Notes: generated by a model not told the origin, from the sequence alone. A stretch of 62,670 nt of DNA from Firmicutes bacterium UBA4996 (GCA_002396805.1 DGYW01000058.1:118747-181416); one strand, 5' to 3'; shown: positions 12,430-22,523, counted from the first letter of the stretch. A program made the numbers and translations.

Positions 12430-13869
12430 GTGAGGAAAATCTTGCTCCGTTTGGGGCTCGTAGTTGTTCTCGTTTTGGTTCTCATCCTAGCCGCGGCACC
12501 GTATTGGGTAACAGCAGTTGGTGTTCCTCGGCAATTAAAGGTCTTTCCCGGTATGGAATTGGTCTTGAATTTGCAGCCGCCCTTGCGACTATACGATGGT
12601 GAAGGTCTAGAAATCACGGGATTAATCAATACAGAACAACTAGGTACCAGCACTTATCGGGTAAATCTTTTTGGGTGGTTACCCCTAACTGAAGTTGTCG
12701 TTGACGTAGTACCGCTAATTCAGGTTTATCCCGGGGGGCAATCCATTGGTGTTTTGCTCAGTGCTGATGGACTATTGATTAACCAAGTTGGTGGGGTTGT
12801 GGGCATGGACGGTATCGAGCATTTTCCCGCTAAAGAGGCAGGCATCCAACCTGGTGATATTCTAATCTCCATTGAGGGTCATAGTCTGAGGCGTCCAGAA
12901 CAGGTCAGCCAGCTGGTCAATGCTTTAGCCGAGGAGAAGAACATTCTAACAGTGGTGGTGCGTCGTCAAAATCGCACCTTAACGTGTGACGTTAGACCCG
13001 TGAAAACCCGACGCCTAGATGTCCTAGGGAGAAATACCATTGGTTACTACCTTGGTATTTATGTAGAAAATCCAGCGGCAGGCGTAGGGACAATGAGTTT
13101 TTATCATGCGGAAACGGGGCGTTTTGGGGCGCTAGGGCATACCATTACAGATAGCTTAGGTAGACCTATTCGCATTGTTTCCGGAAGCATTGTGGAGGCT
13201 TCTATCGATAGCATTCGGGTGGGCAGTAAGGGTTCACCAGGGGAAAAAGTAGGCTTCTTCCACGGGGAGCAAGATGTCTTAGGAAGTATTGACTCGAATT
13301 CTAATTTTGGTATCTTCGGTCAGTTAAAGAGTTCATTTCAACATCCGGCCTTTACCCAACCGGTTCCGGTGGCCTTTGCGCACCAAGTAAGGGAAGGACC
13401 GGCAGAGATTTATACGGTGCTAAGGGGCAATCGTGTTGAACGTTTCACCGTTGAGATCATTAAAGTGAGTAATCAAGCTAAACCTAGTGACAAAGGAATG
13501 GTTGTTCAGGTAACGGATGAACGTCTTTTGCGGGAGACTGGAGGAATAATTCAGGGCATGTCTGGTAGCCCAATTTTACAGAATGGAATGTTAGTTGGGG
13601 CAATTACGCATGTTTTCGTAAATGATCCCACTCGCGGTTACGGAAGCTTTGCAGAATGGATGGTTTACGAGGCAGGCTTGACCACAGAACTTCCTGCGAA
13701 ACAATCGGTTTCGCAGGAAGGTTTTTTTTTACATATAGAGAAGAACCCTAGTAAAAGCAAAGACAAGGCATATCTTATAATAAGAGATTTAATAGGGAGA
13801 GTGTGGAATGGAGTCAAAGACACTTGTATTAGGAGTAATTGGGTCAGATGTTCACGCCGTTGGAAATAA
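12430..13869 (+). CDS. spoIVB: SpoIVB peptidase (S55); the 3' end as called is suspect
   Basis: N-terminal TM, PDZ ([13 protein letters not shown]), catalytic [20 protein letters not shown]. The last ~49 codons run through a terminator hairpin and T9 tract and overlap glmS. Confidence 0.9.
13690..13730 (+). terminator. intrinsic terminator inside the called 3' end of spoIVB
   Basis: Perfect 13-bp stem CTTCCTGCGAAAC / GTTTCGCAGGAAG (13690-13702 / 13708-13720), 5-nt loop, 1 nt, then T9 (13722-13730). Confidence 0.8.
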
Positions 13870-14218
13870 AATTTTGGAGGTTTCCTTTCAACAAGCCGGG
13901 TTTGACGTGGTTAATTTAGGTGTCTTGGTCTCCCAAAAAGAATTTGTGGAGGCTGCTGTAGAGACAAACGCGGATGCAATCATGGTTTCATCACTGTATG
14001 GCCATGGCGAAATCGATGTCCGTGGACTACGAGAGGCGTTGATTGAGGCTGGTATTGGGGACATTCTGATGTATATCGGTGGCTATCTAGTTGTAGGGAG
14101 CCAGGACTGGGCCGATGTTGAGAACAAGTTTAAACAATTGGGCTTTGATCGGGTCTATCCACCCAGCACTTTACCTGAAGATGTTATTCCCACACTGAAG
14201 GCCGACCTAGGCATATGA
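13808..14218 (+). CDS. glmS: glutamate (methylaspartate) mutase sigma subunit, B12-binding
   Basis: 136 aa. [18 protein letters not shown] (DxHxxG cobalamin ligand motif), near-colinear with my recollection of clostridial MutS/GlmS. Confidence 0.92.
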
Positions 14219-14231
14219 TGGAGGTCTACGG

Positions 14232-15626
14232 ATGTCAGAAATAATTCTGGTTGATATTGGAAGCACCTTTACCAAAGTTACGGCGGTAGACTTGACCGCC
14301 GCACACCTTATCGCCCAAGCAAATGCCCCAACCACGCCGGATGATGTGAGCATTGGCTTACAAAATGCCTTGGACAACTTGGGGATATCTCAACAAGTGA
14401 TGGCCCGAGCTCGTAAGCTTGCTTGTTCGAGTGCGGCGGGCGGGTTAAGGATGGTGGCAATCGGACTTGTCCAAGATTTGACCGCTGAGGCAGCTAAACA
14501 AGCGGCATTAGGTGCTGGGGCCAGGGTTCTGAAGACATATTCTTTTCAGCTCACAGAGTCTGATTTAGAAGAGATTATCCAGCTTCAACCAGATATTATT
14601 CTTTTGGCTGGAGGTACTGATGGTGGTAATACTGCTAACATCTTGCACAATGCTCAGGCCTTAGCGACTTTGCCCCAGGGAATACCTGTAGTTATCGCCG
14701 GAAATCGTTCGGTTGGACCTGAGGTAGCTCGTTGTTTTCCTGAACGTTTTAGTACTTATGTAGCTCCTAATGTGATGCCCCAAATTGGTAAATTAGAGGT
14801 TGAGCCTGCTCGGGAAGTAATTCGGAAAGTCTTCATGGAAAAGATAATTTATGCCAAGGGTTTAGACAAGGCTGGACGTTTAATTGAGGGGATCTTTATG
14901 CCTACTCCCGCGGCTGTTTTGCGGTCTGGCAGGCTTCTGAGTAGCGGTACCGCACTTACCAAGGGGTGGGGAGATCTCCTCATTGTGGATGTGGGTGGTG
15001 CTACCACCGATGTCCATTCTTTAGGGACCGGATCCCCTAGTAAAGCGGGTGTGGTCCAGAGGGGACTGCCAGAACCTTTCGCCAAACGAACTGTAGAGGG
15101 AGATTTGGGCATGAGGGTTAGTGTTTTATCTCTCCTCGATGCGATTAACCCAGCGGTCTTGGCTCGCGACTTGAATTGGAATCAAGAAAGAGTGGAGCAG
15201 AGGGCGAAGAAATTGTCTGCACAACCCGAATTGCTACCACAAAATCCGGAGGAAATTGCCTTTGATCAAACCTTAGGGTACCAGGCAGTAAAACTCGCAG
15301 TGGGCAGGCATGTAGGGAGACTCTCTGAATTATATACTCCGTCGGGGTTAGTTTGGATGCAAGATGGCAAGGATCTCTCATTAGTGAATAGGGTGATTGG
15401 GACCGGTGGAGTTATGGTAAATAGCGGAAACGCCCACTTTATGCTCAAAGGGGCAGAACATCAGCTAGAAGCCCCTTTGGAATTGCGTCCCGAAAAGCCT
15501 CATTATTTCTTGGATGGAAAGTATATTTTAGCACCTATGGGGCTGTTGGCTGAAGATTATCCAGAAGTGGCCCTGAAAATTCTCAAAGATTCATTAAACG
15601 ATCATGAGCTCGCAAGGAGGGACTAG
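14232..15626 (+). CDS. glmL: glutamate mutase accessory/reactivating protein GlmL (MutL)
   Basis: 464 aa. MSEIILVDIGSTFTKVTAVD ASKHA-type N-terminus. Located between the S and E subunits as in Clostridium. Confidence 0.85.
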   Translation: MSEIILVDIGSTFTKVTAVDLTAAHLIAQANAPTTPDDVSIGLQNALDNLGISQQVMARARKLACSSAAGGLRMVAIGLVQDLTAEAAKQAALGAGARVLKTYSFQLTESDLEEIIQLQPDIILLAGGTDGGNTANILHNAQALATLPQGIPVVIAGNRSVGPEVARCFPERFSTYVAPNVMPQIGKLEVEPAREVIRKVFMEKIIYAKGLDKAGRLIEGIFMPTPAAVLRSGRLLSSGTALTKGWGDLLIVDVGGATTDVHSLGTGSPSKAGVVQRGLPEPFAKRTVEGDLGMRVSVLSLLDAINPAVLARDLNWNQERVEQRAKKLSAQPELLPQNPEEIAFDQTLGYQAVKLAVGRHVGRLSELYTPSGLVWMQDGKDLSLVNRVIGTGGVMVNSGNAHFMLKGAEHQLEAPLELRPEKPHYFLDGKYILAPMGLLAEDYPEVALKILKDSLNDHELARRD

Positions 15627-15629
15627 TAG

Positions 15630-17087
15630 TTGGTGGCGCAAATTACACATGGTAAGTTGGATTGGTACGATCTTAAACAAGAACGGGAAGAAGTATTGGC
15701 TGGTTGGGTTACTGGTCAAGAGGTAGACTTGGAGGATGCGGTTCGCTTTCACCTGGCTCTACCCTCCCATCTCAATTTTGGTGTACGTATGGCCCAGGCC
15801 AAAGAAGAAGGAAAGACTCTCGCTCAGCCCCGGGCAGGGGTGGCTGATTTAACTAGCCATATTGGTTTACTAAAGTTCTTGCAGGATGAAGGTGGCGCAG
15901 ATCTTTTACCGACCACGATCGATTCTTACACCAGACAGAATCGTTATGAAGAAGCGGAAAGAGGTTTGGAAGAAAGTGTCCGTGAAGGTCGTTCACTCTT
16001 GAATGGCTTTCCCGCCGTAAATCACGGTGTGGCCAATTGTCGCCGCCTTGTAGAAAGCTTGTCTGTACCAGTGCAAGTGCGCCATGGCACCCCAGATGCT
16101 CGTTTACTGGCAGAAATAACCTTAGCAGCTGGTTTTACCGCTTATGAGGGAGGCGGTATTTCTTATAACATTCCCTACGCTAAGCGCGTGCCCTTAGAAA
16201 AAAGTATTCGCGATTGGCAATACGTGGATCGACTCACAGGCTTTTATGAGGAGCAAGGCGTTACCATTAACCGTGAACCTTTTGGACCTCTAACTGGAAC
16301 CCTAGTGGCACCTAGTGTCTCCCATAGTGTGGCCATCATCGAAGCCATTCTAGCGGCTAAGCAAGGGGTGAAGAGTCTGACTTTGGGTTACGGACAATGC
16401 GGAAATCTCATGCAGGACGTGGCCGCACTTCAGACATTAACCATACTTGCAGAAGAATACTTAGAAGCAGAAGGTTTAACAGATGTGGAAATCACCACCG
16501 TATTTCACCAGTGGATGGGAGGATTTCCCAATGATGAGGCTCGGGCCTTTGGAGTGATCTCCCTTGGGGGCGCTGCGGCAGCTCTGGGCAAGGCTACTAA
16601 AGTGATCGTAAAAACCCCACATGAAGCCTTAGGCGTTCCTACTAAGGAGGCAAACGCTCAAGGTATTCGCGCCACGAAGCAAGTCCTAAGTATGCTCCAG
16701 GATCAAATGTATCCAGAAAACGATAAACTGGCTTTCGAGCGGGAGATCATTATTCAAGAGACTCGTGAGATTCTCAACAAGACCCGTGAATTGGGTGAAG
16801 GTGATTGGGCAGTAGGTACTGTGCGCTCCTTCGCCGCCGGAGTTATTGACATACCATTTGCGCCTAGCTCGTTTAACGCGGGAAGAACCATGCCTGCTCG
16901 GGATAATGACGGTGCAATACGCTTTTTATCTTGGGGTAATTTGCCCTTCAGCAAGGACATTCAGGATTTCCATCGCTCGAAACTGGCAGAGCGGGGCAAA
17001 GCGGAGCAACGAACCCCCAGTTTCCAAATGGTTATTGACGATGTTTATGCCATTGGTCAAGGTAAGTTAATAGGAAGACCTCGTTAG
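15630..17087 (+). CDS. glmE: glutamate (methylaspartate) mutase epsilon subunit
   Basis: 485 aa. AQPRAGV...[18 protein letters not shown]...[12 protein letters not shown]...FHQWMGGFP...VIVKTPHEA, colinear with my recollection of clostridial MutE. Confidence 0.95.
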
Positions 17088-17104
17088 AGAACTCTCGCTA
17101 GGAG

Positions 17105-18469
17105 ATGATTGAATTGGATGAACTAAGAATTTTGTCCCCCACGGCGATTCTAGGCTATGGTTTTCCCTTAGCCTCTTTTCAGGCCGGATTAGAGCGTAGT
17201 CCACATGTTATTGCGGTTGATGCAGGTTCAACAGACCCAGGTCCTTATTATCTAGGTTCTGGCCAGTCGTTTACCCAACGTTCTGCAGTCAAGCGTGACT
17301 TACGTCACTTAATTGAAGCGGCTCTCACGCGCAATATTCCGCTAGTCATTGGGTCTGCTGGTGGTTCTGGTGCAAAGCCCCATGTGGAGTGGAATTTAGC
17401 CATTGTAGAAGAGGTGTTGGCAGAACTCGGCAAGACTGCCCGATTAGCGGTTATTTATAGTGACATAGATCGTCAATTGGTCGCGGAAAAGCTCAAGAAA
17501 GACCAGGTCCAGCCCCTGGGTCCTATTGCGCAATTGACAGAGGAAGAAATCTTTGCCAGTACGAACCTAGTAGCTCAAATGGGTCTAGAGCCCATCATGG
17601 AGGCACTCCAAGAAGGCGCAGAGATTATTCTGGCGGGTAGGGCCTATGATCCCACTGCTTTTGCGGCGTTGCCAGTCCTTAAGGGCTATGATCTTGCCCT
17701 AGCTTTGCATCTTGGGAAAATACTGGAGTGTGCAGCTATTGCCGCTAATCCAGGCAGCGGTAGTGATTGCTTAATGGGTTACCTTTATAAGGATTCCTTT
17801 GTGTTAGAAGCTCTCAATCCACAGCGGGAGTGCACGAGGATCTCGATTGCCGCCCATACTCTTTATGAAAAGAGTAATCCTTACTTTTTGCCTGGTCCAG
17901 GAGGACGTTTAGATCTAACTAAGACTGTGTTCGAACAGTTGCCAGGAGGCAAGGTTAGGGTTTCGGGAACTACCTTTACACCTACAGATGGTTATTTTGT
18001 CAAACTGGAAGGGGCACGCCTCATCGGATATCGGACTATCAGTATTGCTGGTGTGCGCGATCCTATCATGATTGGACAGATAGACGAGGTAATCGCAGGT
18101 GTTAAGGAACGGGTCGAGGATAATTTTCAAGAACTCCAAGACTATCAGTTACATGTGCACTGTTACGGTAAGAACGGCGTGATGGGGGCTTTAGAACCTC
18201 ATCCTGAACCGGGACATGAGTTGGGGTTAGTAATTGAGGCAGTGGCAAGCACTCAGGAAGTAGCGGATACTATTTGCAGCTTTGCCCGCTCCACACTCTT
18301 ACACTATGGTTATCCAGGCAGGAAATCTACGGCAGGTAACTTAGCTTTTCCCTACTCACCTTCTGACGTTTCAGCGGGAGCAGTTTACAAGTTTAATGTG
18401 CACCACTTGATGCAAATAGAAGATCCGAAGAGCCTATTTCCAATTAAGATGGGGAGGAGTGGTCTATGA
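17105..18469 (+). CDS. uncharacterised protein, DUF1446 (AtuA N-terminal domain)-like
   Basis: 454 aa. Assignment rests mainly on the overlapping downstream DUF4387-like partner (the AtuA domain order split into two genes). No direct catalytic motif recognised. Confidence 0.5.
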   Translation: MIELDELRILSPTAILGYGFPLASFQAGLERSPHVIAVDAGSTDPGPYYLGSGQSFTQRSAVKRDLRHLIEAALTRNIPLVIGSAGGSGAKPHVEWNLAIVEEVLAELGKTARLAVIYSDIDRQLVAEKLKKDQVQPLGPIAQLTEEEIFASTNLVAQMGLEPIMEALQEGAEIILAGRAYDPTAFAALPVLKGYDLALALHLGKILECAAIAANPGSGSDCLMGYLYKDSFVLEALNPQRECTRISIAAHTLYEKSNPYFLPGPGGRLDLTKTVFEQLPGGKVRVSGTTFTPTDGYFVKLEGARLIGYRTISIAGVRDPIMIGQIDEVIAGVKERVEDNFQELQDYQLHVHCYGKNGVMGALEPHPEPGHELGLVIEAVASTQEVADTICSFARSTLLHYGYPGRKSTAGNLAFPYSPSDVSAGAVYKFNVHHLMQIEDPKSLFPIKMGRSGL

Positions 18470-18768
18470 GATACGTCAAGGATGTTGCTTTGGTGATTCG
18501 AAGTAAAAACGCGGGCCCTTATGAACTAACATTTGACCTCATGTTTCCTGATGAAGAAAGCTACGATGAAGTGCGACAAAGTATTACCAAAGCGAAGATT
18601 GCCCAGTTATACCAGATTGAGGAGAGTGAGGTGCTCTCTCTAGTGCACTTTGCTCCGGCCCATGCCATCAAGATTACTATTGTGCGCCCTCGGGCTTCAG
18701 GTGACCTTGGGGAAACGGATGTTTATGGTGCACAGCAACACGCACCCCTTTTTGACCTAACTTATTAA
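18466..18768 (+). CDS. uncharacterised small protein, DUF4387 (AtuA C-terminal ferredoxin-like domain)-like
   Basis: 100 aa. IRSKNAGPYELTFDLMF and DVYGAQQH motifs as I recall them for this family. 4-nt overlap with the upstream gene. Confidence 0.55.
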   Translation: MRYVKDVALVIRSKNAGPYELTFDLMFPDEESYDEVRQSITKAKIAQLYQIEESEVLSLVHFAPAHAIKITIVRPRASGDLGETDVYGAQQHAPLFDLTY

Positions 18769-18782
18769 AGGAGTGGTGGAAA

Positions 18783-20030
18783 TTGAAGATTAAGGATGTC
18801 GTTTTATCCAAAGGGTTAACGGGGTTTTATTTCGACGATCAAAAGGCTATTCGACAAGGGAATTTTCGCGAAAATGGCCTTGCTTATGATGGTGATCCGG
18901 TGACACCAGGATTCACCAGCATTCGCCAAGCTGGCGAAAGCGTTTCTATTCAATTAGTCTTAGAGAGCGGGCAAGTAGCCTATGGTGACTGTGCCGCGGT
19001 GCAATACTCTGGTGCTGGTGGCCGAGATCCCTTGTTTTTAGCTGATGATTATATTCCCCTGATCGAGAAATACGTCGTACCCGTAGTAAAGGGAAAAGCA
19101 TTAACCTCTTTTAAGCAGTTAGCCAAAGAAGTAGATCAGATTAAAGATAGTAATGGTAAACTAATGCATACTGCCATTCGTTATGGAGTGACTCAGGCTC
19201 TGCTTGATGCGGTAGCCCGAAGCAAAGGGGTAACTATGGCAGAAGTAATCGTTGATGAATATGGTTTGGAGCTAACTCCCGAACCAGTCCTAATCTTTTG
19301 CCAAACCGGAGATGATCGCAAGATCAATGCGGACCGCATGATCATTAAGCAAGCAGATATGCTGCCCCACGGTCTGTTTAACAACGTTAATAAACTTGGT
19401 AAGAATGGAGAGCATCTTAAGGAATACTTAGCTTGGTTGAAGGAGCGGGTCCAGGAACTAAAGACATGTCCTGACTATCTACCTGATTTTCAAGTTGACG
19501 TTTACGGTACCATCGGTGAGGCTTTCAATAACGATATTGCTAAGGTAGGCGAATATGCAAGAGAGCTAGCGGAGATAGTTGCACCACATAAGTTGCTCAT
19601 TGAAGGACCCATCGAGTGCTCCACTCGGGATGAGCAAATTAAGGCCATGGCGGATTTGAGGACCTATGTGGATGAGCGTAACATTCCGGTCAAATTCGTA
19701 GTAGATGAATGGTGTAATACTCTTGATGATATCAAGGCCTTTACCGATGCTAAGGCTGGACATATGATTCAGATTAAGGCTCCGGATCTGGGGGGCATCA
19801 ATAATTCTGTAGAAGCGGTAATCTACTGTCACAAAAACGGTATGCTACCGTATTTGGGTGGAACCTGTAATGAAACAGAGCGTTCTGCTCAGATCACTGT
19901 TCAAGTCGCAGTGGCAACCCAGCCGAGACAGATTCTTTCTAAGCCAGGTATGGGTGTGGACGAGGGATTGTCTATATGCACTAACGAAATGAATCGTCTG
20001 GTGGCTCTTTTGAAGAGCAGAGCAAGGTAG
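18783..20030 (+). CDS. mal: 3-methylaspartate ammonia-lyase
   Basis: 415 aa. GLTGFYFDDQ...DCAAVQYSGAGGRDPLF...HMIQIKAPDLGG...GGTCNETERSA, colinear with my recollection of clostridial beta-methylaspartase. Confidence 0.95.
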   Translation: MKIKDVVLSKGLTGFYFDDQKAIRQGNFRENGLAYDGDPVTPGFTSIRQAGESVSIQLVLESGQVAYGDCAAVQYSGAGGRDPLFLADDYIPLIEKYVVPVVKGKALTSFKQLAKEVDQIKDSNGKLMHTAIRYGVTQALLDAVARSKGVTMAEVIVDEYGLELTPEPVLIFCQTGDDRKINADRMIIKQADMLPHGLFNNVNKLGKNGEHLKEYLAWLKERVQELKTCPDYLPDFQVDVYGTIGEAFNNDIAKVGEYARELAEIVAPHKLLIEGPIECSTRDEQIKAMADLRTYVDERNIPVKFVVDEWCNTLDDIKAFTDAKAGHMIQIKAPDLGGINNSVEAVIYCHKNGMLPYLGGTCNETERSAQITVQVAVATQPRQILSKPGMGVDEGLSICTNEMNRLVALLKSRAR

Positions 20031-20039
20031 GGGATAGAA

Positions 20040-20882
20040 GTGAGAGTAATTAAGTATGACGACATAGTGGCCCGGACTAAAGCCCTGTGTTTGGACGCTA
20101 ATCGGCATCTTCCTGCCGATGTCTTTGGAGCCCTGAAGCGCGCTCAAGAGCAAGAGGTCTCTCCCTTAGGCAAAAATGTTTTAGATACCATTTTGGAAAA
20201 CGCGGAGATTGCTCGCACCAAATCCATGGCGCTTTGTCAGGACACTGGTATGGTTGTTGTTTTCGCCGAGGTCGGTCAAGACGCACGGATTGAAGGTGGA
20301 TTACTCACTGATGCAATTGACGAGGGTGTGCGTCAGGCTTATGATGAAGGGTATCTACGCAAAAGCGTCGTTGGTGACCCCTTAGAGCGAGTAAATACAG
20401 GAGATAACACTCCCGCGGTTGTGCACGTCTCTTTGGTAGCAGGCGATCAACTGCGCCTGACTGTGGCACCAAAAGGTTTTGGTAGTGAAAACATGTCTGC
20501 CCTCCGTATGCTTAAACCTGCGGAAGGCGTACAAGGTGTGAAGGACTTCATTGTGGAGACAGTTACCAAGGCTGGCGGTAATCCCTGTCCACCCATTATT
20601 ATTGGAGTTGGGATTGGAGGTACCTTTGAAAAGGCGGCCTTGATGGCCAAGCGATCTGTCTTGCGGGAAATTGGATCCAAGCATCCAAAACCACACCTGG
20701 CTCAGCTTGAAGAAGAGCTCTTAGAACTGGTCAACAAAACTGGTGTAGGACCGCAGGGCTTTGGTGGTACGCAAACAGCCTTAGCCGTCTTTGTGGATAC
20801 TTATCCAACCCATATAGCGGGATTGCCAGTGGCCGTAAACATTAACTGCCATGTGGCAAGACATGTGGAGGCGATTCTCTAA
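20040..20882 (+). CDS. Fe-S type hydro-lyase alpha subunit (class I fumarase / tartrate dehydratase alpha type; candidate mesaconase alpha)
   Basis: 280 aa. ALCQDTGMVVVF, VAPKGFGSENMS, and IIIGVGIGGTFE motifs of the FumA N-terminal domain. Confidence 0.85.
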   Translation: MRVIKYDDIVARTKALCLDANRHLPADVFGALKRAQEQEVSPLGKNVLDTILENAEIARTKSMALCQDTGMVVVFAEVGQDARIEGGLLTDAIDEGVRQAYDEGYLRKSVVGDPLERVNTGDNTPAVVHVSLVAGDQLRLTVAPKGFGSENMSALRMLKPAEGVQGVKDFIVETVTKAGGNPCPPIIIGVGIGGTFEKAALMAKRSVLREIGSKHPKPHLAQLEEELLELVNKTGVGPQGFGGTQTALAVFVDTYPTHIAGLPVAVNINCHVARHVEAIL

Positions 20883-21748
20883 TGCACTATACTACTCTAG
20901 TTCAGGCGGTTTACTATGCGCCTAGGGGCCGCAAAAGGTTAATGCACTTGGGCATGCTAATTTCCCAGCGATATTTGGGTGCAGAAAACCGCCTGATTGG
21001 GGTGGTTGGTGACTCAGGGGCAGGCAAATCCCTATTGATTCGAGGGATGTTTCCTGGTCTTGTCTTAACAAATGACGATGATGGGGTGAACAACCGACCT
21101 CTTCCGGTCTTGGATGATGCTGGGAACGACTTTTTTCGGACCCACAGCTATCACTTAGATGTGCGTTTTGAAATGGCCTTTACTCCTCTGTGGGAGTTAG
21201 CTGATGCGGTTCGAAAGGCGGTCTCCAGTGGACATCGGGTGATTGTAGAGCACTTCGATTTGCTGTATCCTTTACTCAACCTTAACGCTGAAGTGTTAAT
21301 TGGGATTGGGGAAGAAGTTGTTGTTACTGTTCCCACTCTATTTGGTCCCTTTCCAGCTGAAGTGGCTCAGCAGGCCTTCGATTCCTTAGTTTATCGCAAA
21401 ATGGCCCATAGTGCAGAAGACCTTACTTCTGTAGTTTTCGAACAAATGGGGTTTGAGGCACCAACTATGCACAGCGATGTACGGAGAGGTTTTGTTGTGG
21501 AGTTTTCCCAGAAGCCAGAAGTTGATTTGGCCGAAGTGGAGCGCAGGGTACTGGAATATATTGCCCAGGATTTGCCGATTGGATTTTACAAAGACAATGC
21601 CATCTTAATCGGTGACGAGGTTTTGGAATGTACTGGGCCGCGGATTCATATGTCTTCTACGGGTAAAATTGAACGATTTCGTTTGGATAAAAGTTTTCAG
21701 TATTCGCCGATCACCAAGACTTTCTTGCTGGCCGGACGAGTTGGGTAA
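20882..21748 (+). CDS. uncharacterised P-loop protein
   Basis: 288 aa. Walker A-like IGVVGDSGAGKSLLIRG resembles the HPr kinase-type P-loop. Start overlaps the upstream stop (TAATG). Confidence 0.45.
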   Translation: MHYTTLVQAVYYAPRGRKRLMHLGMLISQRYLGAENRLIGVVGDSGAGKSLLIRGMFPGLVLTNDDDGVNNRPLPVLDDAGNDFFRTHSYHLDVRFEMAFTPLWELADAVRKAVSSGHRVIVEHFDLLYPLLNLNAEVLIGIGEEVVVTVPTLFGPFPAEVAQQAFDSLVYRKMAHSAEDLTSVVFEQMGFEAPTMHSDVRRGFVVEFSQKPEVDLAEVERRVLEYIAQDLPIGFYKDNAILIGDEVLECTGPRIHMSSTGKIERFRLDKSFQYSPITKTFLLAGRVG

Positions 21749-21761
21749 TGGGGTGAAGTCC

Positions 21762-22523
21762 ATGTCGGGGGCGATTAGGATTTTGCAGGCGGACGCGGAC
21801 AGCGTTTTCAGGCAAGATGTGTCTAGATATTTTGAAAGTTTGGAAGACTTTGTCTATATAGAAGGACTAGAGGCTGCAGACAGGATTTTAGATTCTATTG
21901 CAGAGCACCAGCCCAATATTGTTCTCTTGGATTTGGATTTACCACCACAGGGTGGTTTCCCAGTTCTCGGGGAAATTCGAAAACGTTGGAGTAACGATAC
22001 TTTACCTATAATAATGCTCGCCAGATCACATAAGGCAGAAGCTCATCTAACACAAGCAGTTGCTTTGGGTGCCAGCTATTTTATTCTCCGCCCAGTGGAT
22101 TTGGTGGTGCTGGAAAACCGTGTTCGGCAGCTCCTCAATACCACTCCCCTTGTTATTGACAATGGTTTATCACTAAAGCAAGTGCAGGAGATCTGTGTGC
22201 GCTATTTTGATGCCATGGGGATACCTCCCCACTACAAGGGTTATCGCTATTTGATCGAAGGGATTTGGTTAGCTTCCCTGCATCCAACTTGGTTAAGTTC
22301 TATGACGAAAAAACTCTACCCTGCCATTGGTCAGCGCTTTGGTACTAGTGGATCTCAGGTGGAGCGAGCCATGCGTTATGCCTTGGATATGACATGGGAA
22401 AAGGGCGTTCTAGAAGAATTGTATCGTTTGTTTCCCTACGAGGTGCGGGAAAACAAAGGCAAACCTACTAACTCCGCTTTTATCGCTAAGATGGCAGACT
22501 TGGTGGCTTTAGAAGCGGGGTAG
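21762..22523 (+). CDS. spo0A: sporulation master regulator Spo0A (receiver domain non-canonical)
   Basis: C-terminal Spo0A DNA-binding domain (HYKGYRYLIEGI..., SQVERAMRYALD, KPTNSAFIAKMAD). ATG 21762 follows GGGGTGA. The ORF-track start at 21612 overlaps the previous gene. Confidence 0.9.
   Translation: MSGAIRILQADADSVFRQDVSRYFESLEDFVYIEGLEAADRILDSIAEHQPNIVLLDLDLPPQGGFPVLGEIRKRWSNDTLPIIMLARSHKAEAHLTQAVALGASYFILRPVDLVVLENRVRQLLNTTPLVIDNGLSLKQVQEICVRYFDAMGIPPHYKGYRYLIEGIWLASLHPTWLSSMTKKLYPAIGQRFGTSGSQVERAMRYALDMTWEKGVLEELYRLFPYEVRENKGKPTNSAFIAKMADLVALEAG

Follow-up and report, generated by a model that had tools for sequence, protein, structure and literature searches.

The window analysed here is a stretch of 62,670 nucleotides from the draft genome of Firmicutes bacterium UBA4996 (G000:C25:118747-181416; genome of 2.46 Mb in 75 contigs, 93% complete), a member of the GTDB family DTU010 ('Ca. 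Darwinibacteriaceae', f1 below) in the order DTU010 (MBA03) of the class Limnochordia. Its subject is a block of eight genes lying between spoIVB and a spo0A-family gene. We propose that the block is a complete methylaspartate-pathway operon in which CmlAB takes the place of CitDEF as citramalate lyase, and that it was inserted by the time of the order's ancestor, inherited vertically and lost stepwise in a sister family. The probability we assign to this reading as a whole is about 0.68. Going by predicted functions, all four steps leading from glutamate to pyruvate and acetate are encoded in the genome. The eight genes of the block, and the one unlinked gene that completes the set, are the following:

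13808..14218, + strand: glmS (mutS), cobalamin-binding sigma subunit of glutamate mutase (NF002612, 215 bits; TIGR01501, 197 bits)
14232..15626, + strand: glmL (mutL), reactivating accessory protein of glutamate mutase (NF040745, 590 bits, cut-off 475; PF13941, 551 bits)
15630..17087, + strand: glmE (mutE), catalytic epsilon subunit (TIGR01503, 744 bits, cut-off 390; PF06368, 737 bits)
17105..18469, + strand: cmlA, predicted large subunit of an AtuA/DUF1446-type citramalate lyase (phmmer E 1.2e-155, 522 bits to chain A of 9ERQ/9EVF)
18466..18768, + strand: cmlB, predicted small DUF4387 subunit of the citramalate lyase (PF14330, 126 bits; E 2.8e-23 to chain B of 9ERQ)
18783..20030, + strand: mal, methylaspartate ammonia-lyase (TIGR01502, 562 bits, cut-off 286; PF05034 MAAL_N, PF07476 MAAL_C)
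20040..20882, + strand: alpha subunit of a two-subunit class I Fe-S hydro-lyase, mesaconase/fumarase (PF05681, 389 bits; NF004885, 417 bits)
20882..21748, + strand: two-domain protein with an N-terminal TsaE/YjeE-like P-loop ATPase part and a C-terminal part resembling AlaX and the editing domain of alanyl-tRNA synthetase (AlaRS) (AlphaFold2 and Foldseek)
G000:C69:43950-44489, outside the window: beta subunit of the hydro-lyase (PF05683), sole copy in the genome (profile search)

The eight open reading frames (ORFs) called on the plus strand occupied positions 13808-21748 and were packed between the terminator of spoIVB and the spo0A-family gene. The original prediction, made from the sequence alone, had described about 8 kb of tightly coupled genes splitting the spoIVB-spo0A pair, with gaps of 18 nt or less, and all measured spacings agreed with it: in order, the intergenic gaps were 13, 3, 17, -4, 14, 9 and -1 nt, and 13 nt separated the end of the P-loop gene from the ATG of the spo0A-family gene at 21762. 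Its gene identifications were likewise borne out by the Pfam and NCBIfam matches, which named seven of the eight proteins; the eighth, of 288 aa, had no family match.

The genes glmS, glmL and glmE are adjacent, with the gaps of 13 and 3 nt between them, and both GlmL and GlmE scored above the curated equivalog cut-offs. GlmS carries a B12-binding domain (PF02310), exceeded the NF002612 cut-off of 110 bits, and its DxHxxG motif of the base-off/His-on type reads D-V-H-A-V-G at 13847-13864. Mal gave a full-length equivalog match that included MAAL_N and the enolase-type MAAL_C. In one genome of the family a second, divergent glmE (61-62% identity) was seen on another contig (G012:C51, L030:2187-3614), and the 9 kb fetched around it gave no tblastn match to the other query proteins from the window.

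The DUF1446/DUF4387 pair that separates glmE from mal is, by its homology to structurally characterized chains, a predicted CmlAB citramalate lyase. Residues 7-441 of CmlA aligned to residues 5-439 of chain A of PDB entries 9ERQ/9EVF, its single strong match in a sequence search of PDB, where this chain bears the name 'Acyclic terpene utilization AtuA family protein | Citramalate lyase, subunit A (cmlA)'. The AtuA match of the same protein in Pfam was weak (74 bits). The gene cmlB overlaps cmlA by 4 nt, and chain B of 9ERQ is named 'Citramalate lyase, subunit B (cmlB)'. The Cml enzyme (cmlAB) of Raoultella planticola cleaves citramalate directly to pyruvate and acetate, and mesaconate-dependent growth of E. 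coli by means of FumA and Cml was shown together with isotope tracing (bioRxiv 10.64898/2026.01.16.699985). A DUF1446 gene neighbouring mal had already been pointed out for E. coli O157:H7 and Dictyoglomus by Kronen & Berg (2015, PMC4682846), who detected no activity of a citramalate lyase in E. coli O157:H7 and regarded what becomes of citramalate as unclear. For a CitDEF-type lyase, no CitF (PF04223) was found in the 93%-complete genome, and the genome search for CitE gave only a 25.9-bit HpcH_HpaI segment inside a 476-aa protein. Citramalate lyase had been reported missing in the original prediction, which is correct for the CitDEF type and incorrect for the function as we predict it, because the pair within the cluster matches CmlAB. 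In gut and rumen Bacteroidales metagenome-assembled genomes (MAGs; Prevotella, Muribaculaceae and others; L051, L053-L056, L058-L060), the order glmS-glmL-glmE-mal-cmlA-cmlB was seen, with a fumarase-like gene divergently upstream in seven of the eight loci and none detected in L051. Judging by these gene sets, the predicted CmlAB-type methylaspartate pathway is widespread in Bacteroidales too.

The hydro-lyase gene set is split between two contigs. The alpha gene of the window was the only PF05681 gene in the genome, and the beta gene is flanked by a Mur-ligase gene and rph-rdgB on contig C69. The beta subunit had also been listed as missing; there is indeed none in the window, and the one copy upstream of rph-rdgB on C69 provides it elsewhere in the genome. 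Together with CmlAB, it would supply the steps beyond the first two to which the pathway had been limited. Each of alpha and beta was present in single copy in 33 of the 41 genomes of the order and both were missing in the other 8; on large contigs they were clearly unlinked (for example in G014, with alpha on C1 and beta on C2). The position of alpha after mal and the documented promiscuity of class I fumarases (PMC4682846) suggest that the alpha/beta enzyme acts on mesaconate. The orphan Fumerase_C gene encoding beta (L001:1456-2016, G000:C69) was seen to fill a slot upstream of rph-rdgB that in other Bacillota is held by the P-loop/AlaX-like gene, and the two genes appear to have swapped neighbourhoods in this lineage.

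We propose the following course for the pathway. GlmS and GlmE, which depend on adenosylcobalamin and would be kept active by GlmL, would convert L-glutamate to (2S,3S)-3-methylaspartate, from which Mal would remove ammonia to give mesaconate. The Fe-S hydro-lyase, with its alpha subunit encoded in the cluster and its single beta subunit unlinked, would then add water to form (S)-citramalate, and CmlAB would cleave this directly to pyruvate and acetate. Pyruvate could be processed further by pyruvate:ferredoxin oxidoreductase; four genes of this family were found by POR_N matches, two of them encoding proteins of about 1190 aa. A cobalamin riboswitch (88.8 bits) was located upstream of genes for a BtuF-like protein (Peripla_BP_2) and FecCD, the genome encodes a PduO-type adenosyltransferase, and a search for de novo corrin genes did not find CobS or CbiD in it. 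The importer and the adenosyltransferase, with neither of these two genes, point to a corrinoid supply by salvage, so that adenosylcobalamin would come from the riboswitch-controlled importer followed by adenosylation.

All 24 other genomes of the family f1, which cover 10 genera, carried glmE, and so did three of three genomes of family f5; it was found in none of the nine genomes of family f3. At 17 loci of the family the order was argR-recN-spoIVB, the same eight genes, spo0A and three conserved downstream genes. Two f5 loci showed recN, the eight genes and spo0A, with no spoIVB match; at these (L028 and L029) glmS comes directly after recN, with a gap of approximately 160-260 nt. In the other orders of the class, five of five genomes had argR-recN-spoIVB-spo0A, with the last two genes adjacent in four and 2.3 kb apart in the fifth. 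Adjacency of spoIVB and spo0A is thus ancestral for the class, and the claim that the block interrupts it stands. Within the order, the spoIVB-spo0A interval was found in four states. It holds the eight genes in f1 and f5; alpha alone in genera g17 and g18 of f3, and probably in f2, where a contig starts inside alpha; nothing in genera g12, g15 and g19 of f3; and an unrelated 11-kb MoxR AAA/DUF58/VWA operon in f4 (L061:3756-14511, G027). The f4 operon indicates that the interval has served as an insertion site more than once in the order.

Nothing in the composition set the block apart. The GC content was flat across the window (0.45-0.50), the GC content at third codon positions (GC3) was 0.435 in the cluster and 0.447 +/- 0.034 in the other genes of the window, and 38 of the 43 other contiguous five-gene blocks equalled or exceeded the cluster in how far their codon usage departs from that of the remaining window. 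As originally described, no integrase or transposase was present among the ORFs of the window, and no pair of direct or inverted repeats was found to bracket the block. Within the family, identities were 70-90% for the cluster proteins, 54-70% for recN, 60-73% for spoIVB and 34-60% for spo0A.

With the other orders of the class as outgroup, the tree calculated from five proteins of the flanks recovered the order with a support of 1.0 and placed f1 as sister to f3, f4 and f5 together (1.0), so that f5 was not the sister of f1. Within f3 the alpha-only genera branched before the empty-interval genera, and the loss of alpha coincided with the loss of the unlinked beta gene. The tree of GlmE, CmlA, Mal and GlmS mirrored the topology of the flanks, with f1 and f5 monophyletic (1.0) against Carboxydothermus, Feifaniaceae and Bacteroidales, and the tree of the P-loop protein agreed (f1 and f5, 0.98). 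The most parsimonious history is a single insertion no later than the order's common ancestor, followed by vertical descent and by stepwise decay in f3 from eight genes to alpha only and then to none. The single-gene alpha tree was also considered for dating the arrival of alpha at the site, and was dropped as too poorly resolved.

All four steps of the pathway are reversible in principle, and the direction of the flux has to be weighed first. We favour the catabolic direction, which is probably the one in use. It is unlikely, in our estimation, that the pathway runs backwards as an ATP-free route to glutamate, in which CmlAB would condense acetate with pyruvate to citramalate and the product would then be dehydrated, aminated and rearranged. 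High acetate and ammonium in digesters would favour that direction. Neither the window's genome nor its congener G001 has a recognisable glutamate dehydrogenase (GDH), the match to Glu_synthase was marginal in the former and unconvincing in the latter, and searches of the window's genome for citrate synthase and aconitase found neither. The cluster is also universal and more conserved than its housekeeping neighbours, and in the window's genus nothing else was recognisable that connects glutamate with central carbon. Such absences from MAGs that are 91-93% complete are weak evidence, however, and GDH occurs in 20 of 26 genomes of the family, with a Glu_synthase-domain protein in most, all of which retain the cluster regardless. 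The condensation of free acetate and pyruvate would moreover be thermodynamically poor at normal metabolite levels (an estimate, not a computed value), and the family has been described as auxotrophic for many amino acids and rich in transporters for peptides and amino acids (PMC12663870, PMC10608942), which fits uptake and catabolism. The occurrence of GDH in these 20 genomes ruled out the idea that the cluster is the only glutamate route of the whole family. This idea stands for the window's genus, where glutamate and central carbon may be connected by the cluster alone, with a flux that may go in either direction in digesters high in acetate and ammonia. A pathway that stops at mesaconate or citramalate, the view formerly taken of E. 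coli O157:H7, with the AtuA-like/DUF4387 pair doing something else, is very improbable. The AtuA family of Pfam is functionally heterogeneous and the match to it is weak, as given above, but the 522-bit match to the chain of citramalate lyase subunit A is full-length and the partner protein matches subunit B. The pair also lies between glmE and mal here and after mal in Bacteroidales and Feifaniaceae, and the use of Cml in vivo as a citramalate lyase has been reported (bioRxiv 10.64898/2026.01.16.699985).

The history of the block has competing accounts as well. The original prediction had called it an island, that is, a recent horizontal acquisition by this organism or its close relatives. 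In keeping with this, the block interrupts a pair that is adjacent in the other orders of the class, and the closest outside homologs of the P-loop protein that were sampled (about 60% identity) are assigned by name to Desulfosporosinus, Desulfitobacterium, Carboxydothermus and similar genera. Recent acquisition is nevertheless scarcely credible, given that the 10 genera of the family and a second family that is not its sister all share the site, the gene content and the gene order, that the divergence of the cluster tracks the divergence of the flanks, and that GC, GC3 and codon usage proved native, not atypical, with neither repeats nor mobility genes. The original prediction had itself stated that an insertion universal in the lineage and native in composition would be ancestral, and this is what was found; the term island is not kept here. 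A later gain, after the order had diversified, is unlikely; the cluster would have passed between f1 and f5 through the conserved flanks, or would have been assembled around an alpha gene already resident upstream of spo0A. The alpha-only state in g17, g18 and probably f2 would allow alpha to be an older resident. Within the class, no family other than f1 and f5 has the P-loop gene, the same holds for glmE in the sample of 41 genomes, and a flank tree of five genes is limited. Such a gain would require that the eight-gene architecture arose twice in identical form at one site or that a transfer spared the flanks, whereas the divergence between f1 and f5 was proportionate in cluster proteins (53-72%) and flanks (47-60%). 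The basal position of the alpha-only genera with respect to the empty-interval genera, and the loss of beta along with alpha, indicate decay and not build-up. A single early insertion with vertical descent is the account that we retain.

Several points weigh against the complete-operon and early-insertion reading. The assignment of CmlAB is a prediction from homology to deposited PDB chains and from one preprint, and mesaconate as the specific substrate of the alpha/beta enzyme is an assumption; in the f3 genera that have alpha and beta and lack glm, mal and cml, this enzyme presumably acts as a fumarase. The operon is presumed to be expressed, but the text of the metaproteome supplements of PMC10608942 contains no entry for K04835, K19268, K01846 or 'methylaspartate'. 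The species tree was built from only five flanking genes and its f5+f3 node had a support of 0.46, and in the poorly resolved single-gene tree of alpha, Desulfosporosinus was nested beside f1. The absences from the window's genome are provisional, as they were recorded in a draft that is 93% complete.

The P-loop gene, whose start overlaps the stop of alpha by 1 nt, was characterized by the predicted fold of its product. Searches of its 288-aa product against Pfam, NCBIfam and PDB sequences returned nothing useful, and ESM Atlas gave merely its own unnamed family. Its homologs numbered 3279, under the NCBI name 'alanine-tRNA synthetase second additional domain-containing protein', and none had a precomputed Pfam domain. 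The AlphaFold2 model had a mean predicted local distance difference test score (pLDDT) of 90.5 and a predicted template-modelling score (pTM) of 0.83 with an alignment of 45 sequences; from the single sequence the pLDDT was 35. In Foldseek searches the C-terminal part matched AlaX and AlaRS editing domains (1v4p, 1wnu; E 1e-5, TM-score about 0.6 on the target), and the N-terminal part matched the P-loop ATPases TsaE, YjeE and YdiB (1htw, 6n9a_E, 5np9). The Walker A motif and the residues H176, D180, H197, C250 and H256 were invariant in the 45 homologs. The HxxxH and CxxxH zinc motifs of AlaX are altered here to H176-x3-D180 and C250-x5-H256, and the fold match comes without a sequence-level family match. 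The five residues look like a modified metal site of an editing domain. The possibility that this protein is a divergent beta subunit of the hydro-lyase was ruled out by the TsaE-like and AlaX-like folds and by the genuine beta gene elsewhere.

Within the class Limnochordia the P-loop gene was found only in f1 (25 of 26 genomes) and f5 (three of three). In all seven distant genomes sampled, it lies at most about 7 kb from glmSLE/mal or from fumarase alpha/beta genes, and in the six with downstream genes listed it is directly upstream of rph-rdgB. The arrangements were Fumerase_C-P-loop-rph in L075, fumarase alpha and beta a few kilobases upstream of the P-loop gene in L073 and L118, glmS-mutL-glmE-(mal)-HGD-D-BcrAD-MBL-P-loop-rph in L074, L119 and L120 (MBL, metallo-beta-lactamase fold), and glmSLE-mal-cmlAB-P-loop in L052. 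The Bacteroidales clusters have no P-loop gene, which indicates that the protein is not essential to the chemistry of the pathway. The association with pathway genes is strong. It is possible, though we hold it only tentatively, that the P-loop/AlaX-like fusion is an accessory dedicated to the methylaspartate pathway of Bacillota and hitherto unrecognised. It might use ATP to maintain or assemble the B12 mutase or the Fe-S mesaconase, which is labile to oxygen and turnover, or it might regulate the pathway by sensing amino acids.

The nearest counterpart among known systems is the enterobacterial glm-mal-DUF1446-fumD cluster of E. coli O157:H7 and Raoultella planticola (CmlAB, 9ERQ/9EVF; PMC4682846). 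It likewise combines a mutase and MutL with methylaspartase, a class I Fe-S mesaconase/fumarase and an AtuA/DUF1446-type lyase, and has no CitDEF. The two differ in that the hydro-lyase here has two subunits with unlinked genes, whereas FumD is fused, in that cmlAB lies here between glmE and mal and there after mal (as in the Bacteroidales and Feifaniaceae clusters), and in the extra P-loop/AlaX-like gene of the window. The cluster is also fixed family-wide here, in a lineage of anaerobic spore-formers, and strain-variable there. The clostridial cluster of C. tetanomorphum and C. tetani, glmS/mutS-mutL-glmE/mutE-mal-mesAB-citDEF with citCXG, carries out the four chemical steps proposed here with the same mutase, reactivase and ammonia-lyase families and also has a two-subunit Fe-S mesaconase; it uses a CitDEF-type complex containing an acyl carrier protein where we predict CmlAB, and its mesB is within the cluster, unlike the beta gene here. 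Clusters of the Peptococcaceae/Carboxydothermus type (L074, L119, L120, the genomes of Carboxydothermus ferrireducens and Peptococcaceae type, in which the cluster was seen to end in P-loop-rph-rdgB) share glmSLE and have the P-loop/AlaX-like gene last, at their 3' side; L119 and L120 also share mal. They have neither cmlAB nor the fumarase subunits, encode in their place a protein resembling 2-hydroxyacyl-CoA dehydratase, the activator of this protein and a protein with a metallo-beta-lactamase fold, and are located at the murI/rph locus and not at spoIVB/spo0A. This trio may be another, undescribed way to process an intermediate of the pathway. The haloarchaeal methylaspartate cycle also leads from glutamate to mesaconate by glutamate mutase and methylaspartase; there mesaconate is converted to mesaconyl-CoA (Mct, Mch) in the service of acetate assimilation, and the window's cluster contains no such CoA-transferase or hydratase genes.

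The order is among the most abundant and active uncultured bacteria of biogas reactors. It corresponds to MBA03 of SILVA, or 'Ca. Darwinibacteriales', with the families DTU010 ('Ca. Darwinibacteriaceae') and DTU012 ('Ca. Wallacebacteriaceae') (PMC12663870), and has been described from genomes as a fermenter of sugars and amino acids or a possible syntrophic acetate oxidiser. The named MAGs showed the identical cluster arrangement, and one of the family loci (L050, also L031) belongs to MAG UBA3914, GTDB 'DTU010 sp002391385'. In a full-scale biogas plant no organism was more abundant than a MAG of this species (average nucleotide identity 99.9%), which accounted for 11-18% of the reads in the metagenome and for 20-25% of the metaproteome (PMC10608942). 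The terms 'methylaspartate' and 'glutamate mutase' do not occur in PMC10608942 or PMC12663870. The predicted operon from glutamate to pyruvate and acetate, complete, highly conserved and B12-dependent in every sampled member of the family DTU010, would represent a testable catabolic trait, and the predicted corrinoid dependency could be useful in cultivation attempts. The cluster can also serve as a genomic marker that separates the family from its sister family. The range of the newly recognised CmlAB-type citramalate lyase, as predicted, would now include Limnochordia and, judging by the fetched loci, Bacteroidales, and the assignment would close a 'missing lyase' gap that makes annotators score the pathway as incomplete. 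The spoIVB-spo0A interval itself offers a small case of an ancient insertion followed by stepwise decay.

The cluster is preceded by argR, recN and spoIVB. The features at its two junctions are the following:

12430..13869, + strand: spoIVB, upstream flank (TIGR02860, 407 bits; PF05580)
13690..13730, + strand: intrinsic terminator with a 13-bp stem, a 5-nt loop and a T9 run (hairpin search)
21762..22523, + strand: Spo0A-family regulator, downstream flank, divergent copy (Spo0A_C, Response_reg; TIGR02875, 173 bits)

At the downstream junction no terminator was seen between the P-loop gene and the spo0A-family gene, so that co-transcription of the latter with the operon is possible. The protein encoded by this gene scored 173 bits against TIGR02875, under the cut-off of 200 bits, and is substituted at conserved positions of the receiver (MLA and LRP, compared with ITA and LKP in the paralog). 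The unlinked paralog on contig C1 (G000:C1:115750-116487; L071:3751-4491, minus strand) scored 261 bits and has the canonical motifs. Both copies were found in all 41 genomes of the order.

At the upstream junction the homology to SpoIVB stops near residue 417 (about position 13681), and the spoIVB frame in this assembly runs on through its own terminator and 62 nt into glmS. A hairpin followed by a run of T6-T9 after spoIVB was kept in 18 of 18 family loci examined, from which it follows that the cluster is transcribed separately from spoIVB throughout the family. Among the family members the stop of spoIVB lies between -134 and +59 relative to the start of glmS, depending on the length of the T-run, and long read-through into glmS was seen in this window and in a few other loci of the family. 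On the 3' side of the T-run, within 13690-13869 of the window, a conserved ACATRTAGAGAAAGA-like motif was observed.

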